DNA of 64,000 nt from a virus (lineage: Duplodnaviria > Caudoviricetes), in IMG/VR virus record IMGVR_UViG_3300044846_003573. One strand, written 5' to 3'. A model generated the notes under the pieces. That model was not told the DNA's origin. It saw only the letters and a program-made list of their open reading frames with translations, and searched no databases. Shown one piece after another: positions 56,136 through 57,271 of this stretch. The position numbers and the translations under genes are program-made. Every line of letters starts with the position of its first letter. Within the stretch, counting starts at the first letter, position 1.

Positions 56136-56226
56136 AGTCAGGTGGACGTAATGAGGGAGGGACCCAAATCCGTAAGGTTGTCTAATCCGTCAAGAACGGT
56201 ATCCGGTTCGAGTCCGGCCCTGACTA
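56136..56226 (+). ncRNA. tRNA-like RNA, AGTCAGG family copy A
   Basis: acceptor agtcagg/cctgact-A, T arm ccgg-ttcgagt-ccgg, variable-arm-like ccgt/acgg; no canonical anticodon arm. Confidence 0.7.
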
Positions 56227-56233
56227 CTAATAT

Positions 56234-56340
56234 GGGTACACTTATGGAAGGTGGAAACAAAACTTGTTAAACAAGAAGTGGGGTTACCGTATGTCTGATG
56301 GCCCCGTCAGATGGTTTGGGTTCGAGTCCCAGTGTATCCA
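56234..56340 (+). ncRNA. tRNA-like RNA with enlarged non-canonical core
   Basis: gggtaca/tgtatcc-A, T arm ttggg-ttcgagt-cccag; internal cttgt/acaag and tctgat/gtcaga hairpins. Confidence 0.6.
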
Positions 56341-56418
56341 CAAAAAAATAAAAAAAGATTTGGTGGAATGAAAAACTTACCATATCTTTGTTGAAGTTCT
56401 TTGAGAGATTAAAAACAT

Positions 56419-56501
56419 AGTCAGGTGGTGTAAGGGTAGACAAACACACGGTAAGGTACTAGAGACTAATTGAGTAACAGGTTCGAGTCCTGTTCTGACT
56501 A
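56419..56501 (+). ncRNA. tRNA-like RNA, AGTCAGG family copy C
   Basis: agtcagg/tctgact-A, D stem gtgt/acac, T arm acagg-ttcgagt-cctgt; anticodon arm scrambled. Confidence 0.7.
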
Positions 56502-56667
56502 CTAAAGTACACACTACGCTACCCATTGACCAGCGTCCCAGGGTGTGTCTTTTACGGTGTTGTTCCCTTGAGAAAGGAATAGTTTATGTTCAGGACAAAG
56601 GGTGTAAAAGTGCATTTTTACCGACTTTCACAACACAGAGGACTTCTCATCCTCAACTATTAGTGAA

Positions 56668-56742
56668 CTTCGGTACCCATACCGCTGACGATGGGCTAAG
56701 TAAGATACAATTCCGTGTTGCGGGGAGTAGAATGCCGAAGAG
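56668..56742 (+). ncRNA. structured RNA motif copy 1 (paralog at 57679-57753)
   Basis: P1 cttcggta/tgccgaag, P2 cccat/atggg, linker CTAAGTAAGATACAA, P3 ttcc/ggga, GTAGAA. Confidence 0.7.
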
Positions 56743-56755
56743 CTGGTAGTAACAT

Positions 56756-56822
56756 AGTCAGGTAACTCAATTGGCAGAGCTCCTAACAAGGAAGATTGCA
56801 GGTTCGAATCCTGTTCTGACTA
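56756..56822 (+). ncRNA. tRNA-like RNA, AGTCAGG family copy D (truncated anticodon arm)
   Basis: near-normal D and T arms; anticodon arm reduced to tcct-aaca-agga. Confidence 0.7.
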
Positions 56823-57039
56823 CACGTTCTGACTAATCATCAGATAGTATGTCCCATACGATGAGAAATGGTGTGATAACCATAGGGGAGAGTTGAAGGT
56901 TTGTATATATATTACCTTCTAGTTGACTACTAAGGTCGGTAAAACCCATCACGAAGGGGAGCAAGACAGTTTATTCCTAACTCAGCAATGAGGACAGCCA
57001 TAACACCTGTAAGTTGGATAGATAAGGGTGTTTTAATAT

Positions 57040-57065
57040 AGTCAGGTGGCAATTGGTCCTGACTA
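57040..57065 (+). ncRNA. AGTCAGG family copy E, acceptor-stem minihelix only
   Basis: agtcagg-tggcaattggt-cctgact-A. Confidence 0.5.
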
Positions 57066-57080
57066 AAAAATTAAATAAGA

Positions 57081-57185
57081 ATGACACAGGAACAAATAAA
57101 GAATTGGATAGATAGGTGGTCGAAACTAAAACCATCACCACAAAGAGATATGGTAATTAAGATTTGGTCTAGGTTATTGAAATAA
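57081..57185 (+). CDS. 34 aa micro-ORF MTQEQIKNWIDRWSKLKPSPQRDMVIKIWSRLLK
   Basis: manual translation, A-rich start. Confidence 0.45.
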   Translation: MTQEQIKNWIDRWSKLKPSPQRDMVIKIWSRLLK

Positions 57186-57190
57186 AATAT

Positions 57191-57271
57191 AGTCAGGTGG
57201 CGAATGGTAACGCAGCTCGCGGTGTACACTATAAAGGGGTGACAATGCAGGTTCAAATCCTGTTCTGACTA
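57191..57271 (+). ncRNA. tRNA-like RNA, AGTCAGG family copy F
   Basis: Leu-type D arm gcg-aatggtaa-cgc, T arm gcagg-ttcaaat-cctgt; no credible anticodon loop. Confidence 0.7.

Follow-up and report, generated by a model that had tools for sequence, protein, structure and literature searches.

The tRNA islands of bacteriophages are usually viewed as aids to codon usage or as replacements for tRNAs cut by defence systems. At MALAT1 with its mascRNA, and in the tRNA punctuation of mitochondrial transcripts, cuts made by RNase P and RNase Z at tRNA shapes reportedly define the ends of the neighbouring RNAs. Murid gammaherpesvirus 68 (MHV68) encodes the TMERs, viral tRNA-like RNAs fused to precursors of microRNAs (miRNAs), and phage T4 makes species 1 and 2 (rnaC and rnaD), small stable RNAs that lie among its tRNAs and are matured with them. 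The DNA considered here, called the window throughout, is a 64,000-nucleotide (nt) stretch from a tailed phage (Caudoviricetes; IMG/VR record IMGVR_UViG_3300044846_003573), and its element of interest is the AGTCAGG family, a set of tRNA-like elements occupying positions 56136–57271 and named after the 5′ strand of their acceptor stem. Judged from comparative sequence evidence, this is a real, selected and non-decoding phage RNA family that derives from tRNA-Leu. It is apparently undescribed and widespread among phages; no description of it was found in the searchable literature, in Rfam or among GenBank phages.

In the window the family consists of four full elements, c1 (56136–56226), c2 (56419–56501), c3 (56756–56822) and c5 (57191–57271), and one 26-nt minihelix, c4 (57040–57065), all on the plus strand and all starting where a preliminary description of this DNA, made from its letters alone, had placed them. 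As that description also held, every copy carries the acceptor AGUCAGG/YCUGACU (AGTCAGG/(C/T)CTGACT in DNA letters) and the discriminator A73, and every copy but c4 has a GGUUCRA T arm; U8 is present in all five. The full copies form a 7-base-pair (bp) acceptor stem and have a D arm with GG, which takes up positions 10–25 in c2 (D stem GTGT/ACAC), in the short member c3 (ACTC/GAG) and in c5 (GCG/CGC), and is irregular in c1. Their T stems are ACAGG/CCUGU or CCGG/CCGG and their T loops UUCRAAU or UUCGAGU, while c4 is acceptor only, a 7-bp hairpin with an 11-nt loop. The sequence TAGTCAGGT occurs exactly five times in the 64-kilobase (kb) window, each time between 56135 and 57198, and YCTGACTA is found 14 times against 2.4 expected from shuffled sequence. 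Distances along the array are 192, 254, 217, 125 and 217 nt.

None of the five copies is called as a tRNA by ARAGORN. The Rfam tRNA model, whose gathering score is 29 bits, gives 38 bits to c3, 36.8 to c5 and 31.1 to c2 and has no hit on c1; at E up to 5, the Rfam search of the elements returned such weak tRNA matches only and no other known RNA family. A family-specific covariance model, R1, built from 76 members, scores the four full copies at 51–60 bits (c1 51.4, c2 59.6, c3 56.4, c5 54.5) and every real tRNA of the window at no more than 32. Copy c1 represents a subtype, GTAATGAGGGA..GGTCCC.AATCC / CCGGTTCGAGTCCGG, with relatives in contigs L007, L015, L069, L083 and L090 as well as in L027, which is syntenic with the window at 83–99% identity, and in G001, a second relative. 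A further RNA at 60698–60802 (+), 6 nt past an open reading frame (ORF) of 76 amino acids (aa), had been put forward as a relative of the five. Tested against the models, this RNA (c6; acceptor GCTCAGG/CTGAGT) is indeed tRNA-like, with 24.1 bits from the Rfam tRNA model, but its claim to clear membership falls: since its R1 score of 29.9 bits lies in the range of real tRNAs, it appears from its sequence to be a different tRNA-like RNA. The end of c3, GTTCTGACTA, recurs at 56826–56835, 4 nt beyond the element, and this repeat is kept in L027 and G001; it might allow the acceptor to pair in another way, or it may be a scar of recombination.

The preliminary description had suggested searching phage genomes with a covariance model, and the family does extend far beyond the window, since two scans of IMG/VR together place it in at least 180 viral contigs. 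The first scan, with the 3′ half (GGTTCRARTCCNGNYCTGACTA), yielded at least 120 contigs and at least 166 matches; the second, with the 5′ half (AGTCAGGTGGCGGAAT), added at least 60 contigs. Though the first query was the 3′ half alone, AGTCAG[GA] lies 54–181 nt upstream in 141 of the 166 matches listed, and acceptor pairing is intact in 85% of the elements found this way. Conversely, a T arm with a complementary 3′ strand follows in 45 of the 59 elements of the second scan that could be tested, the remainder being mostly near misses, and the T stems, on which that scan did not select, covary: ACAGG/CCTGT occurs 32 times, alongside GATGG/CCATC, ACTGG/CCAGT and GCTTG/CAAGC. The usual layout is AGTCAGG-TG-GCGGAATGGTAGACGC, containing a leucine-type D arm, then an unrelated stretch of 16–140 nt, then ACAGGTTCGAATCCTGT-CCTGACT-A; written as a consensus, it reads AGTCAGG-TG-GCGGAAT(T)GGTAGACGC, variable region, (C)AT-ACAGGTTCGAATCCTGT-CCTGACT-A. 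A D stem can be formed in 67% of elements versus 18% of shuffled ones. Where the 5′ strand is not GCG, the figure is 52% versus 25% in scripted shuffle and swap controls, with GTG/CAC, GCT/AGC, GCA/TGC and ACT/AGT among the alternative pair sets. Core nucleotides of the tRNA fold are likewise retained across the family: U8 in 95%, A14 in 82%, the D-loop GG in 89% and A73 in 94%.

Between the D and T arms, by contrast with these constant ends, lies a region of 16–140 nt (median 48) that folds only mildly better than shuffled sequence (mean z −0.8). That the anticodon regions differ completely, as had been noted for the window, holds for the family at large: the middles of the window copies are unrelated to one another, and 144 of 177 distinct elements have a middle that is a singleton by sequence; conservation with compensatory changes is seen in a few insert subtypes. 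Neither the window copies nor the family have a 5-bp anticodon stem with a 7-nt loop and a defined anticodon. ARAGORN calls about one quarter of family elements, with "anticodons" that scatter over the amino acids or measure 2 or 4 nt. Because the anticodon and variable arms have been replaced by arbitrary sequence, such an RNA should be unable to decode. Members in three contigs (L154, ~1911–2100; L158, ~5113–5310; L177, minus strand) have a hairpin of some 50 nt within their 3′ acceptor strand or in its place; in L177 a T run and a promoter of the Bacteroidota type come next.

Elements sit in their genomes as tRNAs do. The base at −1 is T in 83% of elements and in 70% of real tRNAs of the same loci, position 74 is C in 98% and 91%, respectively, and flanks are A-rich in both. 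Neighbouring tRNAs and elements within 3 kb share a strand in all 648 pairs. Together, the covariation of D and T stems, the retention of U8, A14, GG and A73, the tRNA-like flanks and this strict co-orientation show that selection acts at the RNA level. As to descent, the family shares its D arm (GGCGGAATGGTAGACGC) with tRNA-Leu genes of the same phages. The tRNA-Leu(UAG) of the window shares A1:U72 and A73 with the family, and real phage tRNA-Leu(UAA) genes have near-identical acceptors (ACTCAGG in L102; GGTCGGG/CCTGACT in L052). An origin from host tRNAs was rejected, as the constant 25-mer is absent from isolate genomes; across 185,579 species-representative genomes it occurs at only 22 places, all on contigs of metagenome-assembled genomes, about half of which bear a Bacteroidota label (Chitinophagia, Sediminibacterium, Flavobacterium, Saprospirales). 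Among 50,697 GenBank phage records, blastn finds no match to a typical element; the window stretch itself matches LP65 as the only cultured phage, over ~92 nt overlapping the tRNA-Ser of the window.

The reading we prefer, to which we give a probability of roughly one half, is that the elements serve as non-decoding tRNA handles at which RNase P and the 3′ tRNA machinery cut and which mark the borders between small genes and RNAs. A phage leucine tRNA would have kept the parts that make the L shape (the 7-bp acceptor, U8, a D arm with G18G19, the T arm and A73) and swapped its anticodon and variable arms for 16–140 nt of near-arbitrary, mostly hairpin-forming sequence. Promoters of the Bacteroidota type would drive transcripts that combine the elements with real tRNAs, small ORFs and other stable RNAs. 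Host RNase P would then cut on the 5′ side and RNase Z or exonucleases would deal with the 3′ side, followed by the CCA-adding enzyme, so that flanking small mRNAs and noncoding RNAs (ncRNAs) would be freed with defined ends and no decoding tRNA would be added. RNase P prefers a uridine at −1 and recognises the elbow formed by the T and D loops.

This processing reading fits best because of three features: the tRNA-like flanks, the placement at boundaries of ORFs and ncRNAs, and the unrelated middles behind homologous ORFs. An ATG-initiated ORF of at least 30 aa ends no more than 30 nt upstream of 45.8% of elements, versus 16.5% of real tRNAs likewise without a preceding tRNA (odds ratio 4.3, p = 8.5e-9) and 9.6% of random positions. 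In 15 cases, with examples in L027, the TAG stop codon is U−1, A1 and G2 of the element. These upstream ORFs encode unrelated small proteins that form no family, some of them membrane peptides, and the middles of elements standing behind homologous ORFs are unrelated to each other; what is conserved is therefore the presence of an element, not which one. Further indirect evidence comes from the deep RNA-library contigs over the spacers and from spacer C, which adjoins a tRNA or family member in five phages (both described below).

Several points weigh against the processing reading. The RNA data for this stretch are contigs, which carry neither RNA ends nor cleavage sites and may include DNA. 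The 25 nt of T arm and acceptor are near-invariant across very different phages, yet RNase P and RNase Z require no particular sequence, and this points to an extra constraint, for instance a partner that recognises the sequence, aminoacylation, or recombination that keeps the copies alike. Five jumbo-phage records of 174–271 kb hold 1–4 elements each, clustered within 2–3 kb; the family thus belongs to the tRNA island, and this is no genome-wide punctuation system. Where element and stop codon overlap, cleavage by RNase P would remove the stop. Finally, G001 tolerates a truncated copy, so that single copies are dispensable.

That the released mimics themselves matter is a possibility to which we give less weight than to processing. 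In this case the RNAs would be CCA-tailed and leucylated by the leucyl-tRNA synthetase (LeuRS) of the host, and their action in trans could be to carry leucine without decoding, to titrate LeuRS or EF-Tu in the manner of a sponge, or to present hypervariable inserts to some partner on a stable scaffold. The LeuRS of Escherichia coli is reported to require A73 and the core formed by the D and T loops, and not the anticodon. The conserved parts of the family match what it needs and the free parts what it ignores, and leucine charging is compatible with the conserved features. The near-invariant acceptor and T arm would suit a partner that reads sequence, and the D arm shared with tRNA-Leu of the same phages, the near-identical acceptors of tRNA-Leu(UAA) in L102 and L052 and the few insert subtypes conserved with compensatory changes are further points in its favour. 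Inserts that are mostly singletons and are unrelated behind homologous ORFs, however, fit poorly with specific targets in trans, and they show no excess complementarity within 1.5 kb. Nor is a partner protein enriched within 5 kb of elements at 120 loci, where the largest ORF cluster is found at only 11; the annotated clusters are terminase, methylase, DUF932 and phosphoesterase. The 56 window ORFs of at least 130 aa include no aminoacyl-tRNA synthetase, CCA enzyme, L/F-transferase, RtcB or Ro60/TROVE protein, and TROVE/Ro60 is also absent from the ten commonest ORF clusters flanking elements at those 120 loci; the preliminary description had suggested looking for linked Ro60 or RtcB genes, and none was found in this range. 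A related idea, which we regard as unlikely, is that many phages use a natural tRNA-Leu scaffold, competent for LeuRS, the CCA enzyme and EF-Tu, by which insert RNAs that are exchanged rapidly are expressed, stabilised and perhaps charged; the hypervariability of the inserts would then stem from an arms race, with decoys or binders of host factors, and not from a lack of constraint. For the decoys against tRNA-targeting defences that the preliminary description had envisaged, nothing was found in support.

A different kind of role, at the DNA level, would have the two constant ends of ~25 bp serve as portable homology by which genes and RNAs of the island are swapped, the elements persisting by being copied; it may be likened to the promoter-stem-loop cassettes of T4-type phages. 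The close relatives of the window are the main evidence for it. Intact tRNAs at these positions in relatives would, by the preliminary description, have refuted its view, but L027 and G001 carry members of the family there. In G001 the place of c2 is taken by a c1-type element, with flanks ~80% identical to those of the window. In L027 the upstream flank of c5 is 100% identical and is followed by another member together with an additional membrane ORF of 36 aa, and similarity to the window resumes inside the T arm. At both sites the exchange ends within the acceptor or T arm. The c4 site exists in three states in three relatives: between 99%-identical flanks, the minihelix of the window is replaced in L027 by two full elements around a 30-aa ORF, and in G001 by the first of these two elements, cut off in its T loop. 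Because of these full and truncated counterparts, c4 is better read as the remnant of an internal deletion than as a designed member; contig L170 has an independent minihelix derivative resembling it. An extra T-arm hairpin in 7 of 177 middles, where 0.35 would be expected, is a sign of mosaicism, the 3′ acceptor strand of some elements contains insertions, and homing endonuclease genes lie in the same arrays. Whatever other role they have, the constant ends are evidently points at which recombination takes place. On the other hand, stem covariation, the kept U8, A14, GG and A73, tRNA-like flanks and co-orientation show selection on the RNA too, and target-site duplications are absent. As the main role of the elements, an exchange function at the DNA level seems rather improbable to us, although it is compatible with an RNA role and is not an alternative that excludes one.

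That the elements are functionless, decaying pseudogenes of a duplicated phage tRNA-Leu is very improbable: c4 and the truncated G001 copy are clearly degraded and ARAGORN fails on most elements, but the acceptor, the D arm and the T arm persist, with covariation, across at least 180 contigs and freedom is confined to the anticodon region, acceptor pairing survives in the 85% noted above, and c3 is 100% identical in the window, L027 and G001 whereas its flanks differ, all of which bears out the earlier view that ends so conserved around such free middles reflect selection rather than decay.

Other candidates were rejected. The inserts are not tRNA introns, since at 16–140 nt they fall short of the size of group I introns, many of them even of that of an anticodon arm plus variable arm. 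They are not antisense guides acting in cis, as the longest complementary insert match within 1.5 kb on either side is 7.9 nt versus 8.1 nt for shuffled inserts. A cassette made of an ORF and its own element is contradicted by homologous ORFs with unrelated inserts and by upstream ORFs that form no family. Transposons, including miniature inverted-repeat transposable elements, are contradicted by the lack of target-site duplication and by direct repeats in the flanks that are no commoner than in shuffled pairings; inverted repeats are present at element ends only because the ends form the acceptor stem.

The region of 55.8–57.6 kb is part of a tRNA island (52.3–63.0 kb) in which ARAGORN finds 21 tRNAs, all on the plus strand. 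Upstream of the array lies a predicted promoter, P1 (55854–55885, +; TTTG, 20 nt, TAtcTTTG), ahead of a 68-aa ORF (55923–56129, +) that stops 6 nt before c1 and has no Pfam or PHROG match; the P1 promoter block is conserved in L027 and G001. A repeat of P1, called P2 (56359–56390, +), lies ~28 nt ahead of c2 and is kept in G001. Their shared consensus, TTTG-N20-TAnnTTTG, is what we take to be the promoter type of the Bacteroidota sigma-A factor. A 34-aa ORF (57081–57185, +) stops 5 nt before c5 and is kept in L027 and G001 with two synonymous changes and one replacement. Between c1 and c2, at 56234–56343 (+), lies a tRNA-like RNA outside the family, with the acceptor GGGTACA/TGTATCC, G3:U70, A73 and the T arm GGGTTCGAGTCCC; it is without a normal D arm, has a weak tmRNA (transfer-messenger RNA) match of 9.6 bits, and its 3′ half is kept in L014 and L028. 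The G3:U70 wobble with A73 is the alanine identity pair, and a phage ClpP protease gene (59693–60415, +; PF00574, E = 1.5e-55) lies 3.4 kb downstream, inside the tRNA island. At 53900–53986 (+) there is an Rfam tRNA match of 41.9 bits that ARAGORN does not call.

Three spacer RNAs separate or follow the elements, and on comparative grounds these appear to be conserved RNAs in their own right, pieces of all three being conserved in unrelated contigs. Spacer A (56503–56755, +) has parts kept in L069, L081, L103 and L012. A 63-nt motif within it (56674–56736) recurs at 57684–57746, between tRNA-Leu and tRNA-His, and is also found in L002, L012, L014, L082 and L086, there too adjoining tRNAs or family members. 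Spacer B (56824–57039, +) opens with the second GTTCTGACTA, is 99% identical in L027 and has parts in L112 and L090. Spacer C (57273–57488, +) represents a conserved, apparently unnamed ncRNA family with an invariant start, AATGAGTAAGAGATACTCA, and the conserved blocks CTGAC.TTTT, GCAGG and AATCTCAGGGTGGGG. An alignment from five phages shows compensatory changes at 12 of 41 predicted pairs; its 5′ end comes 1–2 nt after a tRNA or family member in all five, and its 3′ end falls just before the next tRNA or element in the two phages looked at, the window and L020. The preliminary description had called these intervals structured spacers of about 200 nt. Their conservation is borne out, and some compensatory changes exist in spacer C, but folding energies do not differ significantly from those of shuffled sequence (z −0.26, −1.14 and −0.19). 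In four lake RNA libraries, whose contigs attest presence rather than RNA ends and may include DNA carry-over, contig depth reaches 93–162 for spacer C and 123 for part of spacer A, the deepest contigs of the stretch, compared with ~4–5 for an ORF, and is shallow over the elements; spacer B is covered by contigs at 56844–57046 and 56874–57047 with zero differences.

The stretch was found in at least 14 lake metagenome studies. A Bacteroidota host would fit the window because of its two TTTG-N20-TAnnTTTG promoters and two proteins with C-terminal sorting domains of type IX secretion (44186–45238 and 58142–58741, both +; Por_Secre_tail, CHU_C). The phage is probably a jumbo phage, since the nearest related record is 110 kb long at an estimated 38% completeness. 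A full-length GOLLD RNA (42361–42754, +; 321.7 bits) lies ~10 kb upstream of the tRNA island, and a 190-aa protein with the HAD_SAK_2 "Swiss Army Knife" RNA-repair domain (50153–50725, +; PF18143, E = 1e-23) is encoded 1.6 kb upstream of it. Free-standing endonuclease genes stand between tRNAs at 52572–53030 (+), 54054–54875 (+) and 61944–62843 (−), the types among them being HNH, a weak endonuclease PHROG and DUF559/REase_MTES_1575; L027 has a further HNH-motif ORF at ~3544–4180, read by eye, that is absent from the window. Elsewhere the window encodes a phage sigma-70 factor (3994–4794, +), a full DnaJ chaperone (12566–13486, +) and, at 13.9–23.8 kb, a block of glycosyltransferase and sugar-modification genes.

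These results show that part of the phage tRNA islands is not about decoding. At least 180 contigs of uncultured phages, jumbo phages of 170–270 kb among them, carry one tRNA-Leu frame with arbitrary inserts. Its elements border small genes as well as RNAs that are abundant and uncharacterised, in the phage region that also holds GOLLD RNA. A role of the elements as processing handles would explain how long mixed transcripts mature in phages of Bacteroidota; if the elements are charged, they would make up a new class of non-decoding aminoacyl carriers. A practical consequence is that standard tRNA finders miss the elements or assign them spurious anticodons, which pollutes censuses of phage tRNAs.

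Among known systems, tmRNA shares with the family a tRNA-like acceptor and T-arm domain in which the anticodon arm is replaced by other RNA; the elements differ in being much smaller and in having no G3:U70 (the third pair is U3:A70), tag frame or pseudoknots, and ARAGORN finds no tmRNA in the window. The YrlA Y RNAs (RF02553), some of them phage-encoded, mimic tRNA with modules resembling its D and T arms; the literature on them includes Chen et al. (2014; PMC4201824). YrlA ends in a Ro60-binding stem, its acceptor-like stem being closed, whereas the ends of family elements form the acceptor stem, and the elements gave no Rfam match to Y RNAs at E up to 5. Species 1 and 2 of T4, compared here by description, are two fixed RNAs rather than one frame with many inserts. 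Closer in the proposed mode are the TMERs of MHV68, likewise a virus-encoded array of non-decoding tRNA-like RNAs that act as handles for adjacent small RNAs; they differ in belonging to an animal virus, in having RNA polymerase III promoters in the tRNA-like part and miRNA cargo, and in lacking a hypervariable insert. In mascRNA/MALAT1, MEN-beta and mitochondrial punctuation, tRNA-shaped modules are similarly embedded in longer transcripts. Those systems belong to the nucleus or the organelles of eukaryotes and have a single element per transcript, whereas the family here is multi-copy, conserved in sequence, carried by double-stranded DNA bacteriophages and also placed directly behind small ORFs. 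If the handles are processed as we propose, the family would be, to our knowledge, a bacterial-virus counterpart of mitochondrial tRNA punctuation and mascRNA. By mode of action, then, mascRNA/MALAT1, mitochondrial tRNA punctuation and the TMERs would be its nearest analogues. By descent, as far as sequence can tell, its closest relative is phage tRNA-Leu, a class II tRNA (RF00005) with the same 7/5 layout of acceptor and T arm, U8, leucine-type D arm (GGCGGAAUGGUAGACGC), UUCGAAU T loop, A73, A1:U72, flanks, arrays and strand, from which the family differs in having no 5-bp anticodon stem, 7-nt loop or defined anticodon.

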